The notes beneath the pieces were generated by a model, which saw only the letters and a list, made by a program, of their open reading frames with translations, had not been told where the DNA came from and made no database searches. From NCBI GenBank assembly GCA_963668595.1, contig OY764876.1:3923554-3987553 (forward strand): a stretch of 64,000 bases of DNA. The letters are read 5' to 3'. The position numbers were made by a program, and so were the translations under genes. Below are positions 1,793-64,000 of this stretch, piece by piece. Position 1 is the first letter of the stretch. Each line of letters opens with the position of its first letter. Source of the stretch: Prolixibacteraceae bacterium (lineage in GTDB: Bacteria > Bacteroidota > Bacteroidia > Bacteroidales > Prolixibacteraceae).

Positions 1793-1794
1793 TA

Positions 1795-4916: not shown

Positions 4917-4928
4917 TTTATTTTCAGA

Positions 4929-5543
4929 TTAAAATAGTTGTTTCCCGATACTAACTTCATAATAATCGCGTACATCGGTAATCATCATGCCAACCGATTG
5001 TGCTGCCTGAATACCCAAAATACCATCTTCGAAAACCTCGCAGAATTCGGGTGCAACCTGCATCTGTTCGGCGCATTTCAAAAAGGTCTCGGGATGAGGT
5101 TTGAAATTAGTGACATCTTCGGAACAAACCAAAATCTGGAAATAATCTTTTAGTCCGATAATCTCAAGTGTTTTCAGCGCCAGGCGGCGGGCACTTCCGG
5201 TTCCGATTGACATGGGGAGCTTCCCGTGATATTTTTTTACCAGATTTACAACTGGTTCAATTGGTTGGGTCAGGTGCATATTGGCCTCGAATTCGGTTTC
5301 TTTTGCATCGCCCATTTCTTTTGGGTCGATATTTTTGTTGAACATCTCGTTCAGTTTCTCTACTGTTGGGTAAAGCGGAATACCTGCCAGTTGCGCAAAT
5401 AATTCAACGGTAAAGTCAATGTCGTAGCGGGCCGCCGCATTGCGCCATGCAATAAAATGGATGGGCATGGTATCAGCCAGTGTTCCGTCGAGATCAAAAA
5501 TGAGTGCTTTTGCCTGAGATTGAATATCTAATTCGTTCATCAT
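4929..5543 (-). CDS. HAD-superfamily hydrolase, beta-phosphoglucomutase-like subfamily
   Basis: Motif I is DLDGTLADT. A later GTGS and an ED.ILGIQAA-type motif follow. Length 204 aa. Confidence 0.85.
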   Translation of the reverse strand: MMNELDIQSQAKALIFDLDGTLADTMPIHFIAWRNAAARYDIDFTVELFAQLAGIPLYPTVEKLNEMFNKNIDPKEMGDAKETEFEANMHLTQPIEPVVNLVKKYHGKLPMSIGTGSARRLALKTLEIIGLKDYFQILVCSEDVTNFKPHPETFLKCAEQMQVAPEFCEVFEDGILGIQAAQSVGMMITDVRDYYEVSIGKQLF

Positions 5544-5662
5544 TTTTACATTGCAATTTTAATGAACGACAAAAGTAACCATGTAAATGGGAGTACCAAT
5601 AAAAGCACTTTTTTCTTTAAGGAAAAATTAACACTTTTGCTGTTCATTTTTTATGAAGTATC

Positions 5663-6046
5663 ATGAGCCAAAACCTTTTAGTTACGTTTACCAGTTCGGC
5701 CCAATTTGGGATATTCGGTGCGATTGTGCTGATCATTTTTGGCTGGGTGGATAAGAAAGACCGCTTTACCGACATTGGCCGGTTTTTGTTTATGGCACTG
5801 GGCATTTATGCATTGTGGGTCATTTTGACGGGACAAATTCATGTGCCCGAAGTTGCGGTTGGTGAAATCTCAAAAGAAATGCGGATTATTTCCTTTTTCA
5901 AAGGCTTGGTGCTGTGCGGCGGAATTTCTTTGCTCTCGTACGTGCTGAAATTAATGCATGTGCGTTATTACCGGCTGGTTACAATTTTGTGTATGGCTCT
6001 GGCTTTGTTCCTGTTTTTTACGGTGAATAATATTCAGCAAGCCTGA
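5663..6046 (+). CDS. hypothetical integral membrane protein
   Basis: 127 aa with four hydrophobic segments. Confidence 0.5.
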   Translation: MSQNLLVTFTSSAQFGIFGAIVLIIFGWVDKKDRFTDIGRFLFMALGIYALWVILTGQIHVPEVAVGEISKEMRIISFFKGLVLCGGISLLSYVLKLMHVRYYRLVTILCMALALFLFFTVNNIQQA

Positions 6047-7826: not shown

Positions 7827-9056
7827 ATGAAGTATATTGTTTCGAAACCTGAAACTTCGCTAAAAGGAAGCATCAAACTTCCGGCATCGAAAAGTGTTGC
7901 CAACCGGGCACTGATTATTCATGCTCTGAGTTACAGCCCGTATCCGCTTGACAACATTTCCGACAGCGACGACACCCGCGTGATGCAACAGGTATTCAAC
8001 TCGAATACCAATGTTTTCGATATTGGTCACGCAGGAACCGCGATGCGTTTTCTTACTGCATTTTTGGCGAAAATTGTGGGCGAATGGACGCTTACCGGAT
8101 CGGAACGCATGAAACAACGACCCATCGGTATTTTGGTGGATGCGCTGGTGCAACTTGGTGCCCGCATCGAGTACCTCGAAAACGAAGGTTTTCCTCCTTT
8201 GAAAATATTTGGTTCGCACCTTAAAGGCGGTATTATCGAACTCGATGGAAGTGTGTCGAGCCAGTATATTTCGGCTTTGCTGATGATTGCCCCTGCGGTG
8301 GAAGGTGGATTGACGCTTCGTTTGAAAAACAAAATTATGTCGCGCTCTTACATCGAGCTAACTTTAAAGTTGATGGAACAATTTGGGGTGAATCATGTCT
8401 GGAAAGGCAACGAAATTCGCATTGCCGAGCAAGCTTATCGTCCGATTGCTTACACGGTGGAAGCCGACTGGTCGGGTGCTTCGTATTGGTACCAAATGGC
8501 CGCTCTGGCTGATGAGGTGGATGTATTGCTCGAAGATTTGAAACTGGACAGCCTGCAGGGCGATTGCGCCATTGCCAAATGGTTCGAAGCCTTTGGCGTG
8601 CTTTCCGAAGAAACTGAAAAAGGAGTTCGCCTGAGTAAAACAGAAAGTCGTTTACCTTCGGTGCTGCAACTCAATTTTATTGAAAACCCCGATGTAGCGC
8701 AGTCTTTTGCCGTATTGTGTGTGAAGAAAAATATTCCTTTCCATTTCACCGGACTTGAAACCCTGAAAATAAAAGAAACCAACCGCATTGAAGCTTTGCA
8801 GATTGAGCTGGCAAAGTTTGGCGCAACACTTACCGAACCCACGCATGGCGAGCTAAAATGGGATGGCAAACTTGTCGAGGTGACTGAAATTCCTTCGGTA
8901 GCAACTTACAAAGATCATCGCATGGCCTTGGCATTTGCCCCAGCCTGCCTGGGCAGTACGTCCGTTGCCATTGAAGAGCCGATGGTGGTCACCAAATCGT
9001 ACCCTGCCTATTGGGAAGATTTGAAAAAAGTGGGCTTCTCGGTGGAGGAATTGTAA
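7827..9056 (+). CDS. aroA: 3-phosphoshikimate 1-carboxyvinyltransferase (EPSP synthase)
   Basis: LPASKSVANRALI and GHAGTAMRFL motifs. ATG at 7827 is preferred over the TTG at 7815 given in the ORF track. Confidence 0.93.
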   Translation: MKYIVSKPETSLKGSIKLPASKSVANRALIIHALSYSPYPLDNISDSDDTRVMQQVFNSNTNVFDIGHAGTAMRFLTAFLAKIVGEWTLTGSERMKQRPIGILVDALVQLGARIEYLENEGFPPLKIFGSHLKGGIIELDGSVSSQYISALLMIAPAVEGGLTLRLKNKIMSRSYIELTLKLMEQFGVNHVWKGNEIRIAEQAYRPIAYTVEADWSGASYWYQMAALADEVDVLLEDLKLDSLQGDCAIAKWFEAFGVLSEETEKGVRLSKTESRLPSVLQLNFIENPDVAQSFAVLCVKKNIPFHFTGLETLKIKETNRIEALQIELAKFGATLTEPTHGELKWDGKLVEVTEIPSVATYKDHRMALAFAPACLGSTSVAIEEPMVVTKSYPAYWEDLKKVGFSVEEL

Positions 9057-9120
9057 GCACAATAGGGCGCAATAGAAAAATAATTATTTACTGAACGCGC
9101 AGCCGCGTGTTCGTATTGTT

Positions 9121-9153
9121 ATTGATCGGATGAACCCAAGTCATCCGATCAAT
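9121..9153. repeat. REP-like hairpin, TTATCGGACGA family variant
   Basis: ATTGATCGGATGA-acccaag-TCATCCGATCAAT. It shares the loop ACCCAAG with the copy at 55857-55887. Confidence 0.75.
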
Positions 9154-9320
9154 AAGATATAATTTTTCTTTCCATTTAATTCAAACTTTTGCCTTTTTAC
9201 TTTATCCTTTCTTCTTTGATTATATATCTTTGGGAAAGACCAAGACGAATAAATTTTTAATAGGGAAGACCGAAAAATATTCATCTTTAGGATCTAGTAT
9301 ATAATTAAATCGATTATAAA

Positions 9321-9443
9321 ATGACTATAGGGAAAAGCATTCGAATTTATCTAAAAGAAGGAAGTGTTACTGGTATTAAATTCGCAGAATTGGTTAATCA
9401 AACAATTCAAGCATTTTCCTGTCCTAGAAGATCCACTCCGTAA
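9321..9443 (+). pseudogene. 40-codon relic resembling the conserved N-terminus of GIY-YIG/DUF4357-type nuclease proteins
   Basis: MTIGKSIRIYLKEGSVTGIKFAELVNQTIQAFSCPRRSTP* matches the recalled pattern 'IRI[FY]L.[DE]G...GI...E..N.T.QA...PR'. The ORF stops after 40 aa and no nuclease domain follows. Confidence 0.4.
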
Positions 9444-9591
9444 AATTCACTAACTGGTAGCCTGTTTAATAAGCTAATTTGACGAATGAAATATTCGGAG
9501 AAGAAATGAATATAGGACTGATTACAACTTTAAAATAGTTTTAGATTGATTGGATTAATACCAATTTTAAAAGGACGCTACATTAAACATT

Positions 9592-10149
9592 ATGAGAACG
9601 ATAACTTTCTGTTTTTTTATATTACTGTCAATCCCAGTATTCTCAAGGATTGGTATGAATAGAAATTATACCATAATTTCTCAAAACGATTACGATGCAA
9701 ATTTGGCTAAAGGGAAAGATGTAATTCTAAAAAGATATATTGTTGTCCCAGATTTTAATAAAAACTACAAAGAAATTATCAACGTAAATGACCCAGATGA
9801 GATTCTTTCGATGTTTTCATTTATGCTTAGCAGAGGAAAGAGTAAAGAAATCTCTCAATACATATTAAGTTGTAATAAATCAAACGATATTGAATTGTTA
9901 ATACATGGATTATTCTGTTTTTCCAACAATCAATATTATCAATCAATAAAATATTTAGAGAAAATTGAAAATATGCAATTCGCTTTTCTTCGAAGCTTAT
10001 TAATTGCCGATTGCCGTTATGAAACGCTAGTTGATAAGAAAAATTATAATTCGATTTTACAGTTTTATCAAATTTCATTAGACTTGGCAAGAACCGAACA
10101 ACAAAAATTAATTATTAAGAATCGTATAAAGTTTATAAAATATAGATAA
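9592..10149 (+). CDS. hypothetical secreted protein
   Basis: 185 aa with an N-terminal signal-like segment. AT-rich. The stop overlaps the next start (TAATG). Confidence 0.5.
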   Translation: MRTITFCFFILLSIPVFSRIGMNRNYTIISQNDYDANLAKGKDVILKRYIVVPDFNKNYKEIINVNDPDEILSMFSFMLSRGKSKEISQYILSCNKSNDIELLIHGLFCFSNNQYYQSIKYLEKIENMQFAFLRSLLIADCRYETLVDKKNYNSILQFYQISLDLARTEQQKLIIKNRIKFIKYR

Positions 10150-10889
10150 TGAGAAACTATTCAATCTTACTCGCCTTTACGGGATTATTATTTCTAGCAA
10201 GTTGTACTTCGACTAGAGTTATTGAGAAAAACATGAATTCGGACAGATATTCATTAAGCTATTTAAGAGATTCTAAGATTTCGAAAAATAAACTGGATTT
10301 CAATGTGTCAATTGATTCTGTTGTATTTGCAACACCAATGAATATTACCACAACAGTAACCAGATTAAAGGGGTGGTTCATTCCTCTTGCTCTTGTGAAT
10401 ATTTGGAATTCGCAAAATGAATGTATTCAGGGAAAATCAATGTTTGAAGAGGACATCCCAACTTTCCTGCGCACATCCTTGATTGAGGAAATTAATCGCT
10501 CAGGTAATTTTAATTATAATTCGTTTAATGATTCTGAATATCAGCTTGATATTTCAATCGATGGAATAAGTACCAAGGGACCATATGTAAGCAAAGGCTT
10601 TTTCTATTTTGCATTTTTTGCATATGGATATTCTTATGCAGATATTGCGGGGCCAGCTATTTCCAATATGGAAATTTCGTATAAGCTAAAAAAAGGAGAT
10701 AGAGTATTAAAGAGCAATTCATTCAGCTCTGAAAAAATTGCAGAGCAAATCGATAAAAGATATTCAAACAATAAAATGCTCCAACAAGATTATGCAATAA
10801 GTATGGTTGAAGCAGTTTCGCTTAATTTCAAGAATGTTATTGAACTCATTGTTGCAGATTTAAACGATCATTTTAATAAAACGAAATAA
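10149..10889 (+). CDS. hypothetical lipoprotein
   Basis: Lipobox LFLASC-TS. 246 aa. Translationally coupled to the upstream ORF. Confidence 0.55.
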   Translation: MRNYSILLAFTGLLFLASCTSTRVIEKNMNSDRYSLSYLRDSKISKNKLDFNVSIDSVVFATPMNITTTVTRLKGWFIPLALVNIWNSQNECIQGKSMFEEDIPTFLRTSLIEEINRSGNFNYNSFNDSEYQLDISIDGISTKGPYVSKGFFYFAFFAYGYSYADIAGPAISNMEISYKLKKGDRVLKSNSFSSEKIAEQIDKRYSNNKMLQQDYAISMVEAVSLNFKNVIELIVADLNDHFNKTK

Positions 10890-11015
10890 CAACAGACGTT
10901 ATTCATTTTATTAAATGAAGTTTTTCGGGGTATATCAGCTACTGCTTTTAATATATTTTATTTGCCGCTGCTGGTTCTCCGACTATACTTTTATTTTCGT
11001 ATGTATAGCAATTGT

Positions 11016-12701
11016 TTAGTTCAAAGATTTTATGTTTATTGTTTCATAAAACCAGAATCTCTTCTCATTATACTGTGCAAGTTTTATTAAATGTAGAATT
11101 TCCCCTGATTTGTCGATAAACATATAAACAACGTTTATAGAGGCAACTTTAAATTGCCCTTTGTCTTGAAAAACATAGTCATCTATAGTATATGTATTTT
11201 TTGTATCATATCCCACTTCATCTATTCTTGTTAGTATTGTATTTCTTGTAGAATAGTCTTCTTTTATATATGTTGCAAATATCTCTTTGGTGGCACTACT
11301 TTGATCCAGTGTTAAAATATCTTTATTCAAAAGAGGTAATTCTCCCGAAAACTCAGGCTTGAATGAATAATAATTGAGGGAGGAAGAATAATTGAAGACT
11401 TTATATATTTTCCCATTGGAACAAAATATTCGGGTAAAATCATCGGCAATCCAGAATCTTCTCGATCCCAGATTTACTTCCTTTATTTCATTATTAATTG
11501 GACCTTCAGATATGTTGAAAACAGAGAGATAAGATGAATATTCCCTACTACCATATAGGACACCTTTGTTGGGAACTTTCTTTAAAAGATAATTGCCATT
11601 ATATATTTCGCCAGTAGTAACTATCTCTCCTGTAGTCAAGTTAACACTTTTGAATTTACGAGAGGAATCAGCTGATCGGGGAGATAAATAGACCCATTCA
11701 TTATTTCCCCAATTCACATCAGATGCAATCATTCCGGATTGATAGTTTTTTAAAATAGTCTTCTGTTCCACATCGATAAGTGAAACATCTGTATTTGTAA
11801 AATTAGCAACCAATGCATCTCCGTTTTCATTAAGACAAATACAAACGGGAACTTTTTTGGGTTCCATAACAGACACTGGTTCCCCTGGTCTGTAAAAATA
11901 AATCTGATCTGGTTGTTTTGTAGCTATTACCAGTAAACCGTTCTTTTTACAAAAATCTGCATCAACAACATCTCCTTCAATCTGGATATTACTTCCGGAA
12001 ATGGAGGGGTATTCGATTTTCATTGAAACTTTTATCATTTTGATTTCTTCAACCATATTTGTTGACACAACGATTCGTCCAGTGTAGTCGCCTTTATCTA
12101 GATTATCCCTTATTACAGAAATGCCAATATCTTCGGATTCACTTGGATATAAAGCACCTTTTTTCTTTGACGCTTTTATCCAGGATGGCAATTCTATTAA
12201 TTCCCAGGTCAAGATGCCTGGTCTATCCGTATTCTCTATGGTAATAGTTGAAAAATATTGATTGTCCAATACTAACTTATTTGGTAGAATAGATCCGACC
12301 GGAGTGCCATACTCAAAATAGCTTAAAGGATAAATTATCAATCCGATGCCTTCAACATCAAATGTCACAGATCTGTTCTGAATTCCAACGATAGAAACGC
12401 CATAGGGTGATTGTATTTTTTTTAATTTAATAACCGATTTTCCATCGATAAATTCACCTTTTTTAGGTTCAATATCTATTAATCCTGGAGATTGAAACAA
12501 TGACCATTTCGCGTTTTTTGCAGAAGATAATCGAAGTTCGTATTCAATTTCAGGATCAATGCTAGATAGTTTTATGGTATCCTCTGATCCTTCAACTAAA
12601 TAATACTCTTTATTCAGAAAATCATTATTACAACCAAACAGAAATGCTATAAGGATAAGAAGCAAATGAAAGTTTGCTATTTTGGAAATATTTTTTTTCA
12701 T
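11016..12701 (-). CDS. hypothetical surface lipoprotein (Ig/BACON-like N-terminal repeats and a possible beta-propeller C-terminus)
   Basis: Lipobox FLFGC-NN. 561 aa. It starts 1 nt after the upstream barrel gene ends. Confidence 0.55.
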   Translation of the reverse strand: MKKNISKIANFHLLLILIAFLFGCNNDFLNKEYYLVEGSEDTIKLSSIDPEIEYELRLSSAKNAKWSLFQSPGLIDIEPKKGEFIDGKSVIKLKKIQSPYGVSIVGIQNRSVTFDVEGIGLIIYPLSYFEYGTPVGSILPNKLVLDNQYFSTITIENTDRPGILTWELIELPSWIKASKKKGALYPSESEDIGISVIRDNLDKGDYTGRIVVSTNMVEEIKMIKVSMKIEYPSISGSNIQIEGDVVDADFCKKNGLLVIATKQPDQIYFYRPGEPVSVMEPKKVPVCICLNENGDALVANFTNTDVSLIDVEQKTILKNYQSGMIASDVNWGNNEWVYLSPRSADSSRKFKSVNLTTGEIVTTGEIYNGNYLLKKVPNKGVLYGSREYSSYLSVFNISEGPINNEIKEVNLGSRRFWIADDFTRIFCSNGKIYKVFNYSSSLNYYSFKPEFSGELPLLNKDILTLDQSSATKEIFATYIKEDYSTRNTILTRIDEVGYDTKNTYTIDDYVFQDKGQFKVASINVVYMFIDKSGEILHLIKLAQYNEKRFWFYETINIKSLN

Positions 12702-12702
12702 C

Positions 12703-13518
12703 TTAAAAATAAAAATTGAGTCCTGTTGTTAGATTTACCCTAGAAATATTTTTAATATCCTTTCTATCAAAAATATTTTCACTCACTTTTTTCCCATTAT
12801 TTATTTTCATTTTGAATAAATAAGATGCTAAATAGGAAGCATTAATATTCCACCCAATACTTTTGGATATCTTTATTTCAAAACCGGTTTGCAGATTTAG
12901 TGCCGGTGTATTACCAGTTAATAAACGATGTAAAATCACATTGTTATATTCATTGCGATAGAAAATCCATCCCATTGATAATGATGTATACCCATTAAAA
13001 ACATCCTTTATTAAGGTGATGTTTCTTTTTAAGGATAATCCGGTATAGTTCGTATATATATTCTCTTTTATTAGTCCATAAAGACGGTCCCAACTATCAC
13101 TATATGAATAATCACCTGCAATATTGTTATTATTCATCAATATTGAACCGGAGATACTACTTTGGGTATAAAAAATCTGGTTTTCAACACCAATCGACCA
13201 TTTAGGATTAATCCTATAATACAAAACTCCTTGTAATAGATATCCTGAATTTAGATCTTCATAATACTTTAATGCCTCAGGATTAGAAATGCCTTGACTT
13301 ATAAGACTAGCTTTATCATCTTTGGTATTCGCGGTTAAATGTCCTATACCTCCATGAATCTGAATACTAAACCGTTTTATTCTTAATTCCGAAGCACTAT
13401 CGATATTGATTTCCTGTGCCTGAATTGCATTGAGAGAGTTAAAACCAATCAATAAAAAAATTATTGCCACTCGAGATGAAATATTCAGAGAAAACAAATT
13501 GAATAATTTTTTGGACAT
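12703..13518 (-). CDS. putative outer-membrane beta-barrel protein
   Basis: Signal peptide ending AIQAQE, alternating beta-strand pattern, and a C-terminal aromatic residue (LNFYF). Confidence 0.55.
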   Translation of the reverse strand: MSKKLFNLFSLNISSRVAIIFLLIGFNSLNAIQAQEINIDSASELRIKRFSIQIHGGIGHLTANTKDDKASLISQGISNPEALKYYEDLNSGYLLQGVLYYRINPKWSIGVENQIFYTQSSISGSILMNNNNIAGDYSYSDSWDRLYGLIKENIYTNYTGLSLKRNITLIKDVFNGYTSLSMGWIFYRNEYNNVILHRLLTGNTPALNLQTGFEIKISKSIGWNINASYLASYLFKMKINNGKKVSENIFDRKDIKNISRVNLTTGLNFYF

Positions 13519-16234: not shown

Positions 16235-16364
16235 GTGGTTATGATTAAATTTGTATGATGAGTTACAATTTTCAAAGATAAAAATATTTTATAATTGTCT
16301 GGTTGCATACCTACTGGCATTTGTTTCAGTCATTGATAGAGATTGATAGTTATTGGTGTTTGCT

Positions 16365-16494
16365 TTCGGACGGAACTATATACAGTTGGGGATTGCGGGT
16401 TGCTTTCCTGTCGAACCCCAATGCCATTGTTGCGGGATGCGGACTTTGTTGTCCTAACCGAAACCCCAATTGATATATAGTTTTTGTTAGCAAT
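16365..16494 (-). repeat. attC-like imperfect palindrome, element A
   Basis: Stem CTATAT/ATATAG + CA/TG + GTTGGGG/CCCCAAT (16376-16391 with 16464-16480). The core GTTGGGGATTGCGGGTTGCTTTCCTGTC matches element B at 26/28 nt. It ends in TGTTAGCAAT (16485-16494), directly after the stop of the ORF at 16497-17219. Confidence 0.6.
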
Positions 16495-16496
16495 AG

Positions 16497-17219
16497 TTAT
16501 TTGTCAATCAAGTCATTTAATTCATTTATAAATGCTTTCTTATAAGCAGAAAATTCACTGTCTGATTCTATATCCTTAATTCGAATCTTGTTTCTCTCGA
16601 ATAATTTCATGCATAAAAACTGTATTTGTTTATTGTCACTACTGTCAAAACCACAAATAGTTAGTAACGATGTCGGATTTTTAAGTTTTACAAAAAGACT
16701 TTTTTTAATCGAAATCCTATCACTGTATCTTTTCGTTAAAACTAATTGCTCCAGAATATTATTAGCCATTATTACTGTCTGTTTGCTTCGTTTTATTAGG
16801 TTTGTAGCTATTGATTTTATAATATAATAGTCAGTATAGTAGTAGTTTACTTGATAATTATCATCGTCCTTTAATGATGAATTTATATCCATTAAAATCA
16901 CACCACAATCAAAGTATCTACAGAGTCCATTGTCAAACCTCATTAATTCAGCATTTCTGTTATTCGGCAATAAGATTCCTTTATGAATTTCCCATGATTT
17001 AGTTGATGAGTCCAGTCTCGTTTTTATTTGATAGCGACCAATTTTGTCATCGTCGTCAATGACAATATCAAATCCTTCAAAGTCCACATTTGCACTAAAT
17101 ATCTTTAAATGATATTCGCGCTTTGCCGCGGCAATTTTTAAGTCATAGAATAACTTATGATTAAATAATTCTTCTCGAACCAATGTTGCCGAAGCATCTT
17201 TCAAATATTTACTACTCAT
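16497..17219 (-). CDS. hypothetical protein, possible PD-(D/E)xK-fold nuclease
   Basis: 240 aa in an AT-rich stretch. Candidate motif is E16/E17 ... GFD51IVI ... Q64-I-K66. The ORF is flanked by the 10-bp inverted repeat TGTTAGCAAT / ATTGCTAACA. Confidence 0.55.
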   Translation of the reverse strand: MSSKYLKDASATLVREELFNHKLFYDLKIAAAKREYHLKIFSANVDFEGFDIVIDDDDKIGRYQIKTRLDSSTKSWEIHKGILLPNNRNAELMRFDNGLCRYFDCGVILMDINSSLKDDDNYQVNYYYTDYYIIKSIATNLIKRSKQTVIMANNILEQLVLTKRYSDRISIKKSLFVKLKNPTSLLTICGFDSSDNKQIQFLCMKLFERNKIRIKDIESDSEFSAYKKAFINELNDLIDK

Positions 17220-17302
17220 CGAACAAGGCGTTTATAATTATTGCTAACAGATATTTAAATGACAACTGAATGACCATTAATGACCCGTGACTGATTTTTC
17301 TT

Positions 17303-56888: not shown

Positions 56889-58220
56889 ATGGGCATTATC
56901 ACAACGTCATTGCTGGTTTTATGCAGCATTCTCGCCATCATATTTCTTACTTCAAAGCTGAAGCTGAATGCTTTTATTTCGCTTTTTCTGGTTTCGCTTT
57001 CTCTTGCGTTGCTTACAATTCCGGATGCCAATATTCTGAATATTCTTAAAGATGGTTTCGGTACAACCATGGGGGCTATTGGCTTTCTGATTATATTCGG
57101 AGCGATCATTGCCATTGTTCTCGAAAAAAGTGGAGGGGCTGTAAGTATTGCCAGATATATGCTTTCGAAAACAGGCGAAAAACGGGCTCCGGCAGCTTTG
57201 GGGATTGCCGGTTTTCTAGCCGGACTGCCTATCTTTTGCGATTCAGGATACATTATTCTTAGCGGATTAGCCAAATCGTTCAGTGCCCGCACCAAAATAG
57301 CCATGCCTTTCATTGCCGTTGTGCTGGCATGTTCGCTGTATTCGGTGCATTGTCTGGTGCCAACTCATCCGGGAGCATTGGCGGCTTCGGGTATTATGAA
57401 TGTCAATATCGGAAATCTGATACTGGGAGGTATTTTGTTTGCCATTCCGGGCGCTCTGGCTGCTTTTTTCTGGATACGAAGAATGACCAGCGGAAACACC
57501 TATCAACCAGCAACAGGCGCGCCCGAAAATGAAGAAACAAACGCACAAAATCTTCCATCTCCGTTCTTGTCGCTGTTGCCGGTAGTTGTACCGCTGATTT
57601 TAATCGCCGCTGCATCTTTATTTACTGTAATGGACTGGAAAACTCAAAACTATTTTTTCAAGATAGTCCAATTTATCGGTCAGCCTATTGCCGCCTTATT
57701 TATCGGAATGCTCCTGTCTTTTCTTCTACTGAAGAATATGAACATCAAACGCATTAACGGTGTTTTCGAAACAGCAATTGAAAAAGCAGGAACGATTCTG
57801 ATTGTTACGGCTGCCGGAGGAATGTTCGGGATGGTTATTAAGGAAACAGGTGTGGGGACGGCTGCCGGCGATTTCCTTAGCAAAACCGGATTGGGTTTAG
57901 CTGTTCCTTTTCTGATTGCCTTTCTGATGAAGACTGCTCAGGGATCATCTACTGTAGCGATTATAACTACAGCATCGTTTGTGGCACCCATGCTGTCATC
58001 TCTTGGTCTCGATTCCGAATCAGGGAAATTGCTCGCCACCCTGGCAATGGGGGCAGGATCGATGATGATTTCGCATGCCAACGATTCCTATTTCTGGGTG
58101 ATTACCAAATTTTCCGACATTGACTCGGATACTACATTGCGGATTTTCTCTACTGCCACCATCGTAATGGGAATTACCGTTTTTGCTTGTATCTGGATGG
58201 CCTCTCTGGTTTTGTTGTAA
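56889..58220 (+). CDS. gntP: GntP family permease
   Basis: 443-aa polytopic protein with GntP-like blocks (GFLAGLPIFCDSGYIIL, MKTAQGSSTVA, HANDSYFW). Confidence 0.85.
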   Translation: MGIITTSLLVLCSILAIIFLTSKLKLNAFISLFLVSLSLALLTIPDANILNILKDGFGTTMGAIGFLIIFGAIIAIVLEKSGGAVSIARYMLSKTGEKRAPAALGIAGFLAGLPIFCDSGYIILSGLAKSFSARTKIAMPFIAVVLACSLYSVHCLVPTHPGALAASGIMNVNIGNLILGGILFAIPGALAAFFWIRRMTSGNTYQPATGAPENEETNAQNLPSPFLSLLPVVVPLILIAAASLFTVMDWKTQNYFFKIVQFIGQPIAALFIGMLLSFLLLKNMNIKRINGVFETAIEKAGTILIVTAAGGMFGMVIKETGVGTAAGDFLSKTGLGLAVPFLIAFLMKTAQGSSTVAIITTASFVAPMLSSLGLDSESGKLLATLAMGAGSMMISHANDSYFWVITKFSDIDSDTTLRIFSTATIVMGITVFACIWMASLVLL

Positions 58221-58350
58221 GCCGGATAGCTCTGTTTGCAATCGTCGAGTCTTTTTTGGTCTGTTCATCCCGGCTCCCATCGGTTCGGATACGTTCTGCC
58301 AATCGTGTCTATTATCGGGGTGATTTACTTGGTTGTGTGTAATTCATTTT

Positions 58351-58725
58351 TCAACTTAATACCCATCCTATAGCTGATTCAAGAGTGCTAAATGGCCTGG
58401 AAATATAGCCATCGTCGTCAATTTGAACTAATATTGGAATTACAATATCTTTGGGTTCCTCAGTAAGTACAGCAATTTTCAAGTTCCCGAATATGTCAAG
58501 ATGTTTCTTATAGAATTCCGATATTGCTCTATGTTCGTTAATTTTTATATTAAAATTTGAATTCCGATAATCTAGAATAAATCCTTTTGTTTCTTTCGGA
58601 ATTAAATTATTCGCAAACGCATATTCCCATGAAGACTTAATATCTTCTATATTAGTTGATTCATAGTAGTACTTAAACAAAATACCGATTGAACTATCAA
58701 ATTGATATTTAAATTTCTCTCCCAT
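58351..58725 (-). CDS. hypothetical protein
   Basis: AT-rich ORF. The ATG at 58725 is preferred over the TTG at 58734. No recognised motif. Confidence 0.45.
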   Translation of the reverse strand: MGEKFKYQFDSSIGILFKYYYESTNIEDIKSSWEYAFANNLIPKETKGFILDYRNSNFNIKINEHRAISEFYKKHLDIFGNLKIAVLTEEPKDIVIPILVQIDDDGYISRPFSTLESAIGWVLS

Positions 58726-58769
58726 TAAATTCAAATATAAATATTTTAATAGAAAATCAAGTTTTTTAC

Positions 58770-58830
58770 AAAAATGCTAATTGCAAATCAGCATTAGCCG
58801 CTGCGAGCGGGGATGTCTCAAGGAGCGGGA
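58770..58830 (-). repeat. ~62-nt repeat, inverted copy of 1194-1255
   Basis: Contains AATGCTAATT-gca-AATCAGCATT (58773-58795). On the minus strand it lies about 45 nt upstream of the ORF at 58351-58725, the same relative arrangement as copy 1 and the ORF at 1331. Confidence 0.8.
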
Positions 58831-58847
58831 TGAACGGATTCAAAAAC

Positions 58848-59096
58848 TCAAAGAACTTTCAACCGGGAGATTTCGTCTTTGCTTTCAACCATAATCCGAG
58901 TGTTCATTAAATCTTTACGGTCATATTTTTTTATCCATTCGTTGACCGTACTGCTTTGCAGCCCATAAATGCGGGATAACTCTCTTTTGGAGTATTTTCC
59001 AGTACTAAGTTCGGCTAAAATTTTGAGTTTGAAACTCTCGCTGTAACGTCGGGTTACTTGTTCATTTCTATCATTTAAAATCAATAATTTTTTCAA
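58848..59096 (-). pseudogene. IS3-family transposase OrfA (HTH) remnant
   Basis: RRYSESFKLKILAELSTGKYSKRELSRIYGLQSSTVNEWIKKY is an IS3/IS911 OrfA-type HTH. There is no ATG start and no OrfB, and it overlaps the neighbouring ORF. Confidence 0.6.
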
Positions 59097-59667
59097 TGTC
59101 GATGCTCATGCTGTCAAATGCGTCATTTATTGGTTTAGAAATAATTGCAGAGACAAAAAGTGAGAAAAAATAAATCAATATCATAAGAGTTAAGCCAAAA
59201 ATGATCCTAATAAAAGTATATTTAGCAATTTTAAAACCGGTAATCTTTTCTAACAAATTGAATCTGGTTATTAGAAAACTTATTAGAGTTACTGTTAAGA
59301 CCCAAATTGGAAATACCAATATAGCTCTCCAAATTTCTCTATATGCTAAAAGCCAGTATAGGATTATGCCCAAAACTGAAAAACTTAAAACATTCTCAAA
59401 TAGTATTAATCTCCAAGAAGATGGTTTTGGAGGAAATTTTGTCCATAATTCCAACCAGACTATAATTGTAATTGTCAGAAAGACAAACGACAAAATATTT
59501 CCAATTGGTTTAATTGTCAAGTTATAGGAAAAAACTGTCAGAGCAGTAAAAACTCCTAGTACAGATATGAGTTTACTATTATTCTCAATATAATCCGAAA
59601 GAGAATTTGGCTTTTTAATCTCAGAATCATTTGATTCTACTGAATTGTCGTTGTCTTTTTGTCTCAT
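59071..59667 (-). CDS. hypothetical polytopic membrane protein
   Basis: 198 aa with about five TM segments. AT-rich. Confidence 0.5.
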   Translation of the reverse strand: MRQKDNDNSVESNDSEIKKPNSLSDYIENNSKLISVLGVFTALTVFSYNLTIKPIGNILSFVFLTITIIVWLELWTKFPPKPSSWRLILFENVLSFSVLGIILYWLLAYREIWRAILVFPIWVLTVTLISFLITRFNLLEKITGFKIAKYTFIRIIFGLTLMILIYFFSLFVSAIISKPINDAFDSMSIDIEKIIDFK

Positions 59668-59707
59668 TTCCAGTTTTGAATTATCGTTCGCAAGTTGCGC
59701 TTACACT

Positions 59708-59719
59708 GACGTCTAACGG
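59708..59719 (-). repeat. attC-like element B, left box, separated from the rest by the IS insertion
   Basis: GACGTCTAACGG. GTCTAAC fits RYYYAAC. Confidence 0.6.
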
Positions 59720-61404
59720 CAGTCTGTCTAAAAACCTCCAAATTCAATGCTATTCAATTTGATATTGGGGCTATAAAGCAGCGATTTGAAAGTAGTGATA
59801 AATTTTTATTTTCAGAATAAAAATGCTTGTTGATTTTTGAAATGGTTCAATAAAGCGGTTTTTGAGCCTCAAAAACGATGATAAAACAGATTTGTATGCT
59901 CCAAATACTTTTGTCCCCAGCAAATTGATAATCCGTCGGAGATTGCATGCAGTGAGAACCAGACCGCAATCGGCTTCCGCTCGTTGTTTGTACCTTTTTG
60001 TTATGATATAATTGAATCCCCACTGTCGTTTTATTGTCCCGAAAGGATGTTCAACAATGGCCTGCCTGCGTTTGTATAATTTTTCGCTGTTCTGAACTCT
60101 CTTTTTGTTGTTCTCAATGCTTCCGGCAAACTCGCTACGCCTGACCTGCTTGCCATTGACGGCCGACTTGGTACAACGGGGACGAACCGGACATGTTTTG
60201 CAAAGAGGAGTTGTATAGTTTCTGAATCGGTACGACACCTCTCCTGCGTCGTTTTTTGCCTGGTGCCAGTACCCGGTAGTGGTCAGTGTATGGCCTTGCA
60301 AACAGGTGTAAGTATCTGCTTGGGGATTATAGTGAAAATGCTCTACGTCGTAGTCCGGATCGGGTGCATGTGAGGCTCCTGAGAATGGAGGAATGGCCAC
60401 GATTGCCTGAATGCCCAGAGTATCAGCAATCGCCAGTTCGCTACCGGTATGATAGCCTTTGTCGTAGAGTGCAGTAAACTGATTGTTTCTTAAAATGGTT
60501 TTTGCCCTTCGGAGCATCGGCCCCATGGCCTTTTTATCATTGTTGTTGGTTACCCGATAGTCAATAGGAATATTGTTTTGTGCATCCACCGTGGTTTGAA
60601 GACTGTAAGCTACTTCAGTAATATTGTTGCGGGTAATCATGTGGCGGCTGTCGGGATCAGAGGTAGAGATTTGTGCCTGCCCGGATTGCTTTAACTGCTG
60701 CTCTATTTGCTGATAACCCACCCTTCGTTGCTCGTGTTTGAATATCTCTTTTTTGATCTCTTCCGCGTCTTTGTCGTTTTCGGCTAATGCTTTCTGATAC
60801 TCGGTAAGTTTGTTTTCAATGTATTCCAGATGACGGTCAATCTTCTTCTGGTTGTAATTATTTTTCTTACTGTTTTGTGCTCTGAGTTTAGTACTGTCAC
60901 CGGCCAGTAATTTTCCGCCAATCAGGTTAAAATACTGAGCGATTCTGACCGTTTCGCGGAATACTTTCTTTATTGCCTGCGGATTATCTCTTCGGAAATT
61001 GGAAATCGTATTGTGATCGGGGGTCAAGTTCTTCAAAAGCCATATCACTTCAATATTACGACGGCATTCTTTCTCTAGCTGTCTTGACGAGCGGATACGG
61101 TTCATATACCCGTAAATGAAAAGTTTCAGCAGGTCTCCCGGATGATAAGCAGGTCTGCCGTTCTCGCTGAAATCAATTCGGAATCCCATTTCTGAAAGAT
61201 TTAATTTCTCAACAAACACATCAATCAGGCGAACCTCGTTGTCTTTATCGATTGCCAGATCCAGTGAAATGGGAAATAAATGGGTTTGATTGCGATCTTG
61301 TCCTTGAATATATTTCATGTTTCAAGATAACAATCCCTTCTCGTATTATACTTGCTTTCCCTGATTTGTTTTCAACAATCGAATGTGGGTTTTTAGACAG
61401 TCTG
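59720..61404 (-). mobile_element. IS1182-family insertion sequence, complete copy (1685 bp)
   Basis: Terminal inverted repeats are CAGTCTGTCTAAAAACC (59720-36) and GGTTTTTAGACAGTCTG (61388-404), matching 16/17. A 4-bp direct repeat ACGG flanks it at 59716-19 and 61405-08. Confidence 0.85.
59771..61318 (-). CDS. IS1182-family DDE transposase
   Basis: 515 aa. N-terminal DUF772-type block RPAYHPGDLLKLFIYGYMNRIRSSRQLE. C-terminal IVEHPFGTIKRQWGF. Confidence 0.88.
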   Translation of the reverse strand: MKYIQGQDRNQTHLFPISLDLAIDKDNEVRLIDVFVEKLNLSEMGFRIDFSENGRPAYHPGDLLKLFIYGYMNRIRSSRQLEKECRRNIEVIWLLKNLTPDHNTISNFRRDNPQAIKKVFRETVRIAQYFNLIGGKLLAGDSTKLRAQNSKKNNYNQKKIDRHLEYIENKLTEYQKALAENDKDAEEIKKEIFKHEQRRVGYQQIEQQLKQSGQAQISTSDPDSRHMITRNNITEVAYSLQTTVDAQNNIPIDYRVTNNNDKKAMGPMLRRAKTILRNNQFTALYDKGYHTGSELAIADTLGIQAIVAIPPFSGASHAPDPDYDVEHFHYNPQADTYTCLQGHTLTTTGYWHQAKNDAGEVSYRFRNYTTPLCKTCPVRPRCTKSAVNGKQVRRSEFAGSIENNKKRVQNSEKLYKRRQAIVEHPFGTIKRQWGFNYIITKRYKQRAEADCGLVLTACNLRRIINLLGTKVFGAYKSVLSSFLRLKNRFIEPFQKSTSIFILKIKIYHYFQIAAL

Positions 61405-61531
61405 ACGGTGGCGGTATGAAATCGTTGGGGATTGCGGGCTACTTTCCTGTCAAGTTACACCGAACTTAATGCGTGGTATAACTCTTGGATAACCACCTAA
61501 ACCCCAATGTTTTATACCGCGTGTTATGCGG
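61405..61531 (-). repeat. attC-like imperfect palindrome, element B (main part)
   Basis: Stem GCGGTAT/ATACCGC, AAA/TTT, GTTGGGG/CCCCAAT (61411-61430 with 61502-61520). The core is conserved with element A. It ends in GTTATGCGG (61523-31). Confidence 0.6.
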
Positions 61532-61582
61532 TCGTAGTTTTATGATTTTACAGTCGTTATAGATTCGTCAGGTTTGATAAAT

Positions 61583-61852
61583 TTATTTTTTTGATTTAAT
61601 CTTTTTAATGCCTTGTTCAATTGAAAAAAATGCAACAGAACCTAATGGACCAAAAACACCTTTTACTGTTCCCTTAGTTAGCTGTTTAGCTGCATTAGCT
61701 ATAGGATGTTTTTTCTGCCATTCTTCTTCTTCAATAGCACTTTCACCAATTTTCTGCATAACATCAATATTATATTTTTTCTTTATAGCATTGTTTACTT
61801 TGTCAATTGAATTTACATAGCCATTCACCATTTTTATAAAAAAGTCACTCAT
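61583..61852 (-). CDS. small hypothetical protein P1 (89 aa), distant paralog of P3
   Basis: Shares with P3 an N-terminal F...V...DK..A.K pattern and a C-terminal IA....K...K.FG...(G/A)...I.KIK.K pattern, aligned by eye. Confidence 0.5.
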   Translation of the reverse strand: MSDFFIKMVNGYVNSIDKVNNAIKKKYNIDVMQKIGESAIEEEEWQKKHPIANAAKQLTKGTVKGVFGPLGSVAFFSIEQGIKKIKSKK

Positions 61853-61883
61853 AGTACTAATCTATTTAGTATTAATAAAAAAA

Positions 61884-61935
61884 ATGATTTTTTTCTCTTT
61901 TCTCCGCCACTCTTTACAACCGAGTGGCAGAGAAG
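61884..61935 (-). terminator. hairpin immediately after the P2 stop codon
   Basis: On the minus strand: CTTCTCTGCCACTC-ggttgtaaa-GAGTGGCGGAGAA, then A- and T-rich runs. Confidence 0.4.
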
Positions 61936-61936
61936 G

Positions 61937-62149
61937 TTATTTTTCCCATTCTTTTTCAGCTAACTTCCATTGTTCTTTTGCACTTTTAAGTTGATAATTT
62001 GCAATGATTCTAGCTTGACCTGGATGTATCCGAACTCTCATTGCTCCGGCTGCAGCTGTTATAAGGCCATGACCAGTAACAACACCAACAGCACCACAAA
62101 CACTAGCAACTGCTCTTGCTCCGTGAAAAACAGACTTTAGTTTTGACAT
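61937..62149 (-). CDS. small hypothetical protein P2 (70 aa) with a Gly/Ala-zipper hydrophobic segment
   Basis: GARAVASVCGAVGVVTGHGLITAAAGA is followed by a charged amphipathic tail KSAKEQWKLAEKEWEK. Confidence 0.5.
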   Translation of the reverse strand: MSKLKSVFHGARAVASVCGAVGVVTGHGLITAAAGAMRVRIHPGQARIIANYQLKSAKEQWKLAEKEWEK

Positions 62150-62269
62150 AATAAATTGATTTTATAATTGTTTTCGGTATTTTTTTAGATTCATATGTTT
62201 GGTTACTGAAGTGGAAAGAACTAAAAAAATCAACTTGGAACCAAACTTTTCATTGTCAAATCGAAGATT

Positions 62270-62536
62270 TCATTTGTGTTTAATCTTATCAATTACCTCC
62301 CCGGCTATGTCCCCTAAAATTTCACCCCCAAAAGGTTTAGCTACTGCTTTTAAGGCACTTTTACCTAAATAAGTTGCGATATATTTGCCTGGTTGCTCCT
62401 CAGCCATCTTACGCATTTTTTCTTCCTTGGCTTCTCGTTTTGCAATTCTTTCTGGTTTAAATGCTCCAAGTTTATCTAATCCGACATAAAAAGCATCAAA
62501 TACTTTACCTGCTGCTCTATCAAATTTTTCTCCCAT
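62270..62536 (-). CDS. small hypothetical protein P3 (88 aa), distant paralog of P1
   Basis: See P1. The central part is a Lys/Glu-rich helix. Confidence 0.5.
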   Translation of the reverse strand: MGEKFDRAAGKVFDAFYVGLDKLGAFKPERIAKREAKEEKMRKMAEEQPGKYIATYLGKSALKAVAKPFGGEILGDIAGEVIDKIKHK

Positions 62537-62627
62537 AATTGATTGATTTTAATTGATATTGTTGTATTTAAGTAATAATTCAATTTCAAACTTATTAGTA
62601 AATTTGTTTGACTGTCGTTTTTACTAT

Positions 62628-62765
62628 GCCGCATAACGGTCACTTGCAAGTTGTCGTTGCGGATTTCGAAGAGCGTCAGCGTCCGCAGGACGAAGACGGT
62701 CAAGAAAGGAGCAGAGACAACGCACACCACTGTACCCGCAATGCAATTTGCAATTTGTTATGGCC
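62628..62765 (-). repeat. attC-like imperfect palindrome, element C (intact)
   Basis: GCCGCATAACGG ... GTTATGGCC. Arms pair TTGCAA/TTGCAA, GTTG/CAAT and TTGCGG/CCGCAA with bulges. It is a GC-rich island in AT-rich surroundings. Confidence 0.6.
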
Positions 62766-62796
62766 TGGTTTTTATATTTTTCAATCATACATGTCA

Positions 62797-63300
62797 TTAA
62801 TAGCGAATCAAATTAAATGGTGATAGTTTTTCAGTTGTCTCAATATCTTTTAATCCAAGAGTCTTTGTCAAAAAGTCTGTGAAAATTATTTTTTGTCCAT
62901 TAATCAAAACAATCTCTGTGTAATTGTAAAAAAATGTTGGTAAAGCATAAGTCAAATTGTCCTCGTCCTTTTGACCTTTGTGTCTTACGATTTTGTCTAT
63001 TTCTTTGAATTGAAACTCTTTTTCTAGTTGTCCACTTTTATCAATTCTAACTGTCAATTTTGAATAATTTACCGTTATTTTTTTGTTTCTATCTTTTAGT
63101 TTGTATTGAAGATGTAGAATCAGTTGGGGAACTATCAACAAGAGAAAACCAAATCCAATGAAAAGTCCTAAGTCTTCCTTTTTTAAAAGAAAGTAAACGA
63201 ATCCAAAGATTGACAAAATGTAAAAGAGAACTGATTTTCTAAAAATCTTCCATTCATTTCTTTTGTCAAAGTCAAATTCTATTATAAACTCATTTCCCAT
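62797..63300 (-). CDS. hypothetical membrane protein (two TM segments plus a small soluble beta-rich domain)
   Basis: 167 aa. Its architecture resembles the ORF at 6139-6603. Confidence 0.5.
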   Translation of the reverse strand: MGNEFIIEFDFDKRNEWKIFRKSVLFYILSIFGFVYFLLKKEDLGLFIGFGFLLLIVPQLILHLQYKLKDRNKKITVNYSKLTVRIDKSGQLEKEFQFKEIDKIVRHKGQKDEDNLTYALPTFFYNYTEIVLINGQKIIFTDFLTKTLGLKDIETTEKLSPFNLIRY

Positions 63301-63330
63301 TTATATATTGATTATGTCTTTTTTAAACTT

Positions 63331-63341
63331 GGCCATAACGG
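63331..63341 (-). repeat. attC-like element D, left box only, truncated by IS copy 2
   Basis: GGCCATAACGG is the perfect complement of the right box of element C, GTTATGGCC. Confidence 0.55.
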
Positions 63342-64000
63342 CAGTCTGTCTAAAAACCTCCAAATTCAATGCTATTCAATTTGATATTGGGGCTATAAAG
63401 CAGCGATTTGAAAGTAGTGATAAATTTTTATTTTCAGAATAAAAATGCTTGTTGATTTTTGAAATGGTTCAATAAAGCGGTTTTTGAGGCTCAAAAACGA
63501 CGAAAAAACAGATTTGTATGCTCCAAATACTTTTGTCCCCAGCAAATTGATAATCCGTCGGAGATTGTATGCAGTGAGAACCAGACCGCAATCGGCTTCC
63601 GCTCGTTGTTTGTACCTTTTTGTTATGATATAATTGAATCCCCACTGTCGTTTTATTGTCCCGAAAGGATGTTCAACAATGGCCTGCCTGCGTTTGTATA
63701 ATTTTTCGCTGTTCTGAACTCTCTTTTTGTTGTTCTCAATGCTTCCGGCAAACTCGCTACGCCTGACCTGCTTGCCATTGACGGCCGACTTGGTACAACG
63801 GGGACGAACCGGACATGTTTTGCACAGAGGAGTTGTATAGTTTCTGAATCGGTACGACACCTCTCCTGCGTCGTTTTTTGCCTGGTGCCAGTACCCGGTA
63901 GTGGTCAGTGTATGGCCTTGCAAACAGGTGTAAGTATCTGCTTGGGGATTATAGAGAAAATGCTCTACGTCGTAGTCCAGATCGGGTGCATGTGAGGCTC
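63342..64000 (-). mobile_element. IS1182-family insertion sequence, second copy (runs off the window)
   Basis: Same left end CAGTCTGTCTAAAAACC as copy 1 and near-identical sequence with a few substitutions. The transposase stop is at 63393, the same 51-nt offset as in copy 1. Confidence 0.85.
63393..64000 (-). CDS. IS1182-family transposase, C-terminal part (partial at window edge)
   Basis: Translation matches copy 1 except for a few substitutions (for example TACNL to TAYNL, FLRLK to FLSLK). The frame stays open to position 64000. Confidence 0.85.
   Translation of the reverse strand, partial: ASHAPDLDYDVEHFLYNPQADTYTCLQGHTLTTTGYWHQAKNDAGEVSYRFRNYTTPLCKTCPVRPRCTKSAVNGKQVRRSEFAGSIENNKKRVQNSEKLYKRRQAIVEHPFGTIKRQWGFNYIITKRYKQRAEADCGLVLTAYNLRRIINLLGTKVFGAYKSVFSSFLSLKNRFIEPFQKSTSIFILKIKIYHYFQIAAL

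Follow-up and report, generated by a model that had tools for sequence, protein, structure and literature searches.

What are the three GC-rich palindromes that alternate with small minus-strand genes near the right-hand end of a 64,000-nucleotide stretch of Prolixibacteraceae DNA (assembly GCA_963668595.1, contig OY764876.1, the whole stretch being called the window below)? A preliminary description had read these palindromes, named B, C and D, as attC-like sites of an integron-type cassette array with the minus-strand order D, a 167-residue open reading frame (ORF), C, the genes P3-P2-P1, B, a 198-residue ORF, an IS3-type relic, a 127-residue ORF and the end of gntP. Our analysis agrees with that order, and it is very probable that the window contains a short minus-strand cassette array of an integron-like system widespread in Bacteroidota. 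The array, its order and its decayed end at gntP hold up on four grounds: a box complementarity rule that runs through the site family, co-oriented ORFs in 50 related loci, the presence of the 167-residue cassette elsewhere, and a recombinase gene plus attI-like site in relatives. The term integron-type is borne out by the array architecture; it does not fit the recombinase of the relatives, which is non-canonical and co-oriented with the cassettes, or the sites, which depart from the attC consensus. Hence the system is integron-like and not a demonstrated member of the classical integron family, as the array-associated recombinase lacks the IntI-specific insertion and thus is not a canonical IntI. 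The locus is laid out as follows, R1 being the covariance model described below and IS denoting an insertion sequence.

63342-64000, minus strand: IS copy 2, partial and running off the window, inserted in the R' box of D; ACGG copy at 63338-63341; truncated transposase ORF 63393-63923.
63331-63341, minus strand: element D, 3' remnant, reading CCGTTATGGCC, with G at 63339 and TT at 63338-63337; IS junction identical to that of B.
62637-63338, minus strand: cassette 1, 702 bp, starting TTATGGCC, with a 167-residue membrane ORF (63300-62797, PH_40 domain) and ending in its own site C.
62628-62765, minus strand: attC-like element C, with R'' GGCCATAAC, a long bulged stem and R' GTTATGCGG.
61406-62636, minus strand: cassette 2, 1231 bp, starting TTATGCGG, with three small ORFs and ending in site B.
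62536-62270, 62149-61937 and 61852-61583, minus strand: the cassette 2 ORFs P3, P2 and P1, respectively.
61405-61531, minus strand: attC-like element B, main part, from R'' CCGCATAAC through ...CACCGT, interrupted by IS copy 1.
59720-61404, minus strand: IS copy 1, 1685 bp, with a 515-residue DDE transposase (61318-59771) and terminal inverted repeats CAGTCTGTCTAAAAACC.
59708-59719, minus strand: displaced R' box of B, which is also the start of cassette 3, reading CCGTTAGACGTC.
59071-59716, minus strand: cassette 3, truncated, starting TTAGACGTC, with a 198-residue membrane ORF (59667-59071).
58221-59096, minus strand: decayed distal array end, with a relic ORF (59096-58848) and a 127-residue ORFan (58734-58351), abutting the gntP stop at 58220; no R1 match.
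56889-58220: gntP, GntP_permease.

The sequence bore out the placement of B, C and D in the preliminary description, including the splitting of B and D by ISs, together with its central observation that the boxes at the ends of the palindromes are complementary across the gene modules. The complementarity is exact at 9/9 for both pairs, B-right GTTATGCGG against C-left CCGCATAAC and C-right GTTATGGCC against D-left GGCCATAAC. Seen from the cassettes, the start of cassette 2 is the 9/9 complement of the R'' box of B (CCGCATAAC), and the six nucleotides after the GTT of D (ATGGCC) are the reverse complement of the six before the AAC of C. As random boxes of the family match at six of six positions in 1% of cases, the two window matches have p ~1e-4. 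Removal of the IS and one copy of the target duplication from B restored ACCGTTAGAC; no such repair can be made for D, most of which is past IS copy 2 and so not in the window. The attC of cassette 3 itself, expected with GACGTCTAAC, is missing: GTTAGAC is found nowhere in the window and GTCTAAC solely at 59711. Likewise, scanning with R1 gave no site between the three ORFs of cassette 2. Folded as single-stranded DNA, the plus strand of C reached -27.7 kcal/mol (z = -3.55; 0 of 200 shuffles did as well) and that of IS-free B reached -18.8 kcal/mol (z = -2.0; 6 of 200 did). The minus strands of both folded less well (z about -1.2).

To place these sites in a family, we collected 78 loci (L001-L078) from other Bacteroidota by an IS-transposase scan of genome contigs (no more than 77% identity, 1.0 Mb in total) and reconstructed their target sites free of the IS. 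The reconstructed sites were palindromes of about 130 nucleotides with the layout of B and C. A covariance model (R1) having 18 base pairs was built from 21 of these sites plus B and C, its structure being set manually from column statistics; RNAalifold run on the raw MAFFT alignment was discarded because it recovered only 8 pairs owing to register shifts. R1 scored B at 95.9 bits (E = 2e-18, 61400-61529, minus strand) and C at 83.8 bits (E = 7e-16, 62631-62763, minus strand), and it matched 146 copies in 50 of the 78 loci, distributed over Marinilabiliales, Flavobacteriales, Cytophagales and Saprospiraceae. These copies were co-oriented, spaced 0.3-4 kb apart and each a few nucleotides past the stop codon of a co-oriented ORF; 130 of the 146 lay on one strand relative to the IS. 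Outside the arrays the density was about one site per 240 kb. The stem covaried: pairing was seen in 87.8% of cells, as against 60.9% in shuffled and 26-47% in slid controls, and both sides had changed in 682 cells (239 in the shuffled set). These figures are somewhat inflated since the alignment was fitted to R1, although the slid controls used the same alignment. The secondary structure is therefore conserved in the manner of attC sites, having paired boxes and a variable loop region, with arm sequences more conserved than those of typical mobile-integron attCs. A sub-type of about 190 nucleotides with an extra internal hairpin is common in the Flavobacteriales and Cytophagales loci (for example L052 1330-1524, L053 9734-9927, L055 7731-7924 and L113 4751-4949); R1 detects it weakly (27-52 bits) and so the census undercounts it.

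The complementarity seen in the window proved to be a rule of the family. We compared the six nucleotides following the GTT of each site with the six preceding the AAC of the next in 81 consecutive pairs. An exact reverse complement was present in 46 of the 81, versus 1% of random pairs and 2 of 115 comparisons within one site, and the mean number of matches among the six positions was 4.37 across modules, 2.18 within a site and 2.06 at random. The match per position was about 0.73 at positions 1-6, 0.40 at position 7 and at background at position 8. The window pairs D/C and C/B obeyed the rule at 9/9, as did a solo cassette found elsewhere in the window (below). This complementarity across modules indicates that the cassette boundaries are at G|TT and that the sites are not repetitive extragenic palindromic (REP) sequences or miniature inverted-repeat transposable elements (MITEs). 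In integrons, modules bounded by TTnnnnnn...nnnnnnAA are reportedly the product of site-specific recombination with a G|TT crossover (Stokes and Hall; Mazel 2006).

The boxes themselves were only partly as first described. The preliminary description had given them as approximately RYYYAAC and GTTRRRY; the AAC and GTT ends are present in B, C and D, and IS-interrupted copies aside, AAC was found in 136-138 and GTT in 137-138 of the 146 sites. The consensus also holds at the position next to each triplet (Y in 139 and R in 142 of these sites), and the other three positions are compositionally mixed. Hence, the family retains only YAAC/GTTR, and the window boxes GCATAAC and CCATAAC do not fit RYYYAAC. 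A strict RYYYAAC...GTTRRRY scan of the window accordingly returned only chance hairpins in coding regions and missed both B and C, the consensus being too strict for the Bacteroidota sites. In more than 90% of the sites the 3' arm is 2-4 nucleotides longer, and the spacer is asymmetric (about 3 versus 5-6 nucleotides). Unpaired A and C positions are near-invariant, and what is an A.C mismatch on the strand of the ORFs reads as G.T on its complement. Folding was more stable for this complementary strand in 87 of 117 sites (p = 4.5e-9), as it was in B, C and the solo copy. We found no counterpart in the Bacteroidota sites of the extra L'' base of the aadA2 attC; two near-invariant A.C mismatches are present instead. 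When R1 was run against the aadA2 attC of the class 1 integron of pFBAOT6 (L159 5003-5062, minus strand), it aligned end to end at the right place and on the right strand with a non-significant score of 6.1 bits (E = 2.3), which is a faint architectural resemblance and not a significant match.

Given arrays of this kind, a recombinase would be expected at their head, and relatives of the window have one. In Draconibacterium (L005) and a Saprospiraceae genome (L068) the first site is immediately preceded, on its own strand, by a gene for a tyrosine recombinase of 350-390 residues; in L013, L028 and L065 a degraded, frameshifted or partial copy is co-oriented upstream of the first or an IS-occupied site. 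The family has more than 7,900 homologues at E < 1e-20, which carry the NCBI label 'site-specific tyrosine recombinase/integron integrase'. A scan of metagenome contigs with a 27-member recombinase alignment gave 80 loci centred on the gene, and in these R1 matched 0 sites in 182 kb upstream versus 35 sites in 187 kb downstream, all on the recombinase strand and distributed over 18 loci. In every relative the array shares the strand of the recombinase gene rather than diverging from it. Metagenome contigs often end 0.2-2 kb downstream of the recombinase gene (L082, L087, L127 and many short loci), which fits assembly breaks at repeated sites.

An exact 9-mer composed of GTT plus the reverse complement of the box of the first site was present between the recombinase gene and that site in 17 of 22 arrays, and in 15 of the 17 it lay 41-123 nucleotides past the recombinase stop codon. 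In most arrays the 9-mer is preceded by a conserved motif (..ATAC(A)CATAC / ..TATACaCAtAC, that is, ..TATACACATAC|GTT; plus-strand reverse complement ..GTATGTGTATA), often with a short hairpin. The 9-mer and its upstream motif constitute an attI-like site, one seen in relatives only. By analogy, the recombinase and attI of the window array would be upstream on the minus strand, beyond position 64000.

The recombinase is related to IntI proteins, yet is not one of the canonical type. It scored 229 bits with NCBIfam NF040815 (XerA/integron integrase), above the cut-off of 220, whereas head-of-array recombinases gave 216, 177 and fewer bits with TIGR02249 (integron integrase), below the cut-off of 265, the match being in two stretches for the two full-length enzymes scanned (L005 and L068). 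The XerC and XerD models gave about 190 bits. The best PDB matches by sequence were XerA (151 and 146 bits), VchIntIA (123 bits, in two stretches) and XerD (95 bits), and ranking by fold gave the same order. BLASTP against IntI1 (the sequence used being 100% identical to an annotated intI1) left gaps of 31 and 11 residues, 42 in all, at the IntI-specific insertion between patch III and box II. The catalytic residues R, K, H, R, H and Y are invariant in the recombinase alignment, a C-terminal (K/R)SPLD motif past the catalytic tyrosine is shared with IntI1, and there is an extra N-terminal domain of about 70-100 residues having no Pfam match. Shorter recombinases of about 300 residues (L008, L015, L022, L047 and L062) were considered as array integrases and set aside, as they lack the N-terminal domain and occur in either orientation inside or beside arrays. 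Four are paired with an ORF of about 374-406 residues (L015 5855-7802, L022 4060-6074, L047 13310-15237 and L062 14203-16081), and these pairs could be a mobile element of another kind for which the arrays are likewise a target.

The ISs that split B and D belong to the IS1182 family, having an IS1182-type DDE transposase (352.8 bits with NCBIfam NF033551, cut-off 270; Pfam DUF772 plus DDE_Tnp_1_6), 17-nucleotide terminal inverted repeats and a 4-bp duplication, which in B is ACGG at 59716-59719 and 61405-61408. The two copies are 99% identical over 300 nucleotides. Among related IS copies, 53 of 55 were inserted after CGT, and removal of the IS restored GTT[A/G] in 51 of 55. The target in relatives is ...CATAnnnnnnACCGT|IS|CCGTTRnnnn..., entered in one orientation at ..(C/A)CGT|T.. 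within the R' box with a 4-bp duplication. IS1111-attC elements and group IIC-attC introns likewise insert specifically into attC sites; the present elements do so in one orientation and at one position beside the crossover. Unlike those elements, they have an IS1182 DDE transposase and a 4-bp duplication instead of being IS110/IS1111 elements or retroelements, and their target is the Bacteroidota-type site. Hence, this IS1182 group is a functional analogue of the IS1111-attC elements, and we found no description of it in open-access papers or bioRxiv. Insertion at ..CCGT|T.. would presumably inactivate the site and freeze the neighbouring cassettes. With two of the three visible sites presumably put out of action by an IS and decay at the distal end, this array is probably largely immobile.

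Mobility is evident for the cassette encoding the 167-residue protein. The protein has 15 homologues, and the gene of the Maribellus luteus homologue (75% amino acid identity) lies between two other R1 sites in a different array. DNA homology between that genome and the window starts at CCG|TTATGGCC, spans the ORF and its site, and ends at GTGAC(C/G)GTTA|, after which the sequences diverge. The preliminary description had called for such a presence-or-absence comparison in relatives, and its outcome, with breakpoints at G|TT, favours cassettes. The Lunatimonas (Cytophagales) homologue is a solo cassette, AAG|TTGGCAGC...GCTGCCAAC plus site, and metagenome contigs have the cassette, its site truncated, flanked by an esterase gene and a GH3 gene (ATAG|TTATGGCC). 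The 167-residue cassette is mobile between contexts and also occupies secondary sites that are not attC sites. In the family at large, the 26 cleanest cassettes were 512-3020 bp long with the longest ORF on the sense strand in 26 of 26, and an all-against-all comparison of the 26 found nothing shared. The window cassette proteins gave no match by tblastn against all of the fetched loci, and PADLOC, Pfam and NCBIfam gave no function for the cassette ORFs and no match at all for P3, P2 and P1, the sole annotation being the precomputed PH_40 of the 167-residue protein.

The window also contains a cassette standing alone, far from the array.

16363-17248, minus strand: solo cassette, beginning G|TTAGCAAT (17248-17240), with a 240-residue ORFan (17219-16497) and an attC-like element (16492-16363).
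17770-17303: TadA-like deaminase gene, a neighbour of the solo cassette.
16234-15056: transglutaminase-like gene, the other neighbour.

Its attC-like element scored 52.2 bits with R1 (E = 3e-9) and has the R'' box ATTGCTAAC, to which the start of the cassette is complementary at 9/9; the R' end is decayed (CCG|AAAGC). The right junction, ..CCG|AAAGC, lacks TT, which places the crossover between G and TT. This arrangement suggests insertion of a cassette at a secondary, non-attC site.

Taken together, these data allow a mechanism to be proposed. Each cassette would be a promoter-poor unit composed of TT plus six variable bases, one to three co-oriented ORFs and its own imperfect palindrome of about 130 nucleotides, laid out as nnnnnnAAC-A-..stem..variable loop..stem..-ACC-G. 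Site-specific recombination, crossing over at G|TT, would link the cassettes head to tail, such that the bases after GTT belong to the next cassette and are complementary to the AAC box of that cassette. Judging from related genomes, the enzyme would be a dedicated XerA/IntI-like tyrosine recombinase, its catalytic core closest to archaeal XerA and to IntI. Its gene would head the array, in the same orientation and with the attI-like site behind it, and the enzyme would catalyze insertion by attI x attC and excision by attC x attC recombination. The conservation of structure argues that the sites would act as a folded single strand; as with classical integrons, this would most likely be the one opposite the ORFs. 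Either the N-terminal domain or the conserved unpaired bases may replace the IntI insertion in recognition. In this scheme the window array would be partly disabled, two IS1182 copies having split B and D and the distal end by gntP having decayed. On a broader scale, we consider it an even chance that Bacteroidota have their own phylum-wide integron lineage that standard tools do not register, with its own integrase clade, attI, ~130-nucleotide attC grammar, secondary-site cassettes and a specialised IS1182 family. Such a lineage could be a sister or an ancestral form of the classical integron.

How do these arrays compare with known systems? Classical integrons, such as the Vibrio cholerae superintegron, also have a tyrosine recombinase gene and an attI-like site followed by co-oriented cassettes that are mostly ORFans. 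Their sites are likewise imperfect palindromes having AAC...GTT, inner paired boxes and a variable loop, with a G|TT crossover and a chimeric R' box; the opposite strand folds better, chromosomal attCs are similarly about 130 nucleotides long, and single cassettes occur at secondary sites. In contrast, the Bacteroidota recombinase lacks the IntI insertion, has an added N-terminal domain, falls below the TIGR02249 cut-off, is nearer to XerA and is co-oriented with its cassettes, although a minority of classical integrons are also co-oriented. Classical IntI needs the IntI-specific insertion to read extrahelical bases. The sites differ from classical attCs in keeping only YAAC/GTTR, in their 9-bp pairing and asymmetric spacer, and in having A.C mismatches in place of the extrahelical G in L''. 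Nor is the attI motif (TATACACATAC|GTT) related to attI1. In IntegronFinder terms the window resembles a cluster of attC sites that has no integron integrase (CALIN), having at least two co-oriented sites less than 4 kb apart, as defined by R1 rather than by the IntegronFinder attC model, plus the solo cassette; no recombinase was found within 58 kb on one side of the array, the other side lying beyond 64000. The scarcity of Bacteroidota integrons on record, noted in the preliminary description, is in line with the paper on IntegronFinder 2.0 (PMC9024848): for Bacteroidetes it gives nothing but integrases standing alone in 2016 and, in 2022, a single complete integron, that of Salinibacter. 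Reviews list Bacteroidota among the phyla with occasional integrons. Smyshlyaev et al. described the IntI insertion as 'not fully conserved' in their integron-like recombinase subgroup (PMC8138268).

Three other explanations deserve weighing. The window could contain a classical integron or a CALIN derived from one, with ordinary attC sites and a canonical IntI beyond 64000 or elsewhere in the genome. The AAC...GTT boxes, L boxes, variable loop, cross-cassette box rule, ORFan cassettes and better bottom-strand folding would all be accounted for, R1 was placed weakly but end to end on the aadA2 attC (6.1 bits, E = 2.3), and lone IntI genes (In0) have been reported in Bacteroidetes (PMC9024848). 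However, all of the head-of-array recombinases (L005, L068, L013, L028, L065 and the 18 metagenome loci) lack the insertion, and TIGR02249 matches L005 and L068 below its cut-off and in two separate stretches. The recombinase gene has the orientation of the cassettes instead of diverging from them, YAAC/GTTR alone is conserved and the R boxes are effectively 9 bp. Moreover, IntegronFinder surveys are near-empty for Bacteroidetes proper, which would be hard to understand were a family of this abundance recognised by its attC model. Given such a consistent non-canonical neighbour, a canonical IntI is improbable, and we hold this explanation to be quite unlikely. Alternatively, the same recombinase could act on short duplex core sites (..ATAC..AC|GTT..), as Xer does at dif and pdif, the palindrome having another role, for example as a transcription terminator or mRNA stabiliser between cassettes. 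The enzyme is nearest to XerA, whose dif substrate is duplex, and has no counterpart of the IntI domain for reading extrahelical bases; the attI-like site forms only a short hairpin, although ATAC..AC|GTT is common to it and the 3' end of the sites, and the sites themselves are placed right after stop codons as terminators are. The pdif modules of Acinetobacter plasmids and the archaeal XerA/dif system also pair an Xer-like 'simple' tyrosine recombinase with discrete modules bounded by sites. The pdif sites are 28-bp duplexes (11-6-11) whose orientation alternates and which have neither a long hairpin nor a dedicated platform, whereas the sites described here are structured, about 130 nucleotides long and directly oriented in polar arrays behind a dedicated recombinase and attI-like site; sequence inspection found no short dif-like site bounding the modules. 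Duplex recombination gives no reason for an AAC box about 120 bp away to stay complementary to the six nucleotides on the GTT side of the same circular cassette, a rule that makes sense only if both boxes pair in a folded strand. The covariation of at least 18 base pairs along the whole arm, the conserved mismatches and the 2-4-nucleotide asymmetry go beyond the needs of a terminator, no T-run follows the stem, and the better-folding strand is the non-transcribed one. We therefore regard duplex recombination as unlikely, though deserving some weight.

It is also conceivable that the palindromes are ordinary REP sequences, or the related bacterial interspersed mosaic elements (BIMEs), or MITEs, with the complementarity in the window a coincidence. 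Like those repeats they are short, GC-rich, intergenic and of uniform size, and one window copy stands alone between the deaminase and transglutaminase-like genes. REPs and MITEs can be targets of ISs, and the site-targeting IS recalls IS1397 and ISKpn1, both of which target REPs. Yet such repeats are palindromic within the element and dispersed, whereas here the boxes pair across a gene module (57% terminal complementarity across modules versus 2% within elements) and the copies are clustered, co-oriented, linked to a recombinase and polar to it (0 in the 182 kb upstream). About one site per 240 kb was found outside arrays, the solo copy forms a whole cassette whose start matches at 9/9, the ORF-plus-site unit moves between genomes, and no REP-associated (RAYT-type) or MITE-parent transposase was seen near the sites. 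The preliminary description had named genome-wide scatter in the manner of REPs or MITEs as what would undo its reading; cross-module complementarity, clustering and polarity were found instead, and a coincidence of repeats is scarcely credible.

Several observations weigh against an integron-like array in the window. Neither a tyrosine recombinase nor the attI-like motif is present within the 64-kb window, and the connection of the window array to a recombinase would follow by analogy with its relatives. Among the 19 closer recombinase loci having at least 1.5 kb of downstream sequence only 11 had an R1 match, the sites of the other 8 probably having been missed. Of the 81 neighbouring pairs, 35 lacked complementarity, probably due to missed or decayed intermediate sites. 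Some 'cassettes' (that of L160, for instance) are several kb long and contain antisense genes. As R1 was seeded on IS-target sites, its census is biased to one sub-type. A recombinase without the insertion that IntI needs for extrahelical bases does not assure recognition of a folded substrate, and the activity of the recombinase, the strand used and the exact position of cleavage are computational predictions. Finally, we found no description of the Bacteroidota arrays, their sites or the site-specific IS in open-access papers and bioRxiv, the search having covered these and not subscription journals; the integron-like system appears undescribed.

Should the integron-like array be as proposed, a major phylum of marine, sediment and host-associated bacteria would possess an abundant cassette-capture platform missed by current detectors, as these depend on the IntI-specific domain and on the canonical attC model. 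Gene capture and shuffling by integrons is textbook material, and integrons are held to be essentially absent from Bacteroidota proper. A large unexplored pool of cassette genes would be exposed. The arrays would also be a natural experiment on the recognition of folded DNA without the IntI insertion, the IntI-specific domain then not being required for cassette recombination, and would bear on the evolution of integrons from Xer-like recombinases. The covariance model and the attI motif would be ready for annotating such arrays, and the assembly breaks just downstream of recombinase genes would be explained.

A few minor features complete the picture. In the decayed end of the array, the relic ORF at 59096-58848 is an IS3-type HTH_Tnp_1 (Pfam PF01527) and the 127-residue ORF has no Pfam match. 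The segment following the latter (58221-58345, minus strand) reads ACACAAC-CA-AGTAAATCACCCCG (ACACAAC-CA-AGTAAAT..), which resembles the 5' arm of a site; R1 gives no match and it was not counted, although it may be a decayed last site of the array abutting gntP. Rfam at its gathering threshold, a collection that includes no attC family, gave tRNA only in the window. Two more low-GC islands (window positions 1-2000 and 9000-13500, 30-32% GC versus about 42% elsewhere) contain ORFs without Pfam matches and no R1 site. Lastly, the long unit of L160 in Maribellus luteus (1866-5967) is a 4.1-kb 'cassette' having a sense gene of the Eco57I/N6_Mtase type and three antisense genes, one of which encodes a helix-turn-helix regulator, and it looks like a defence-type module within an array.

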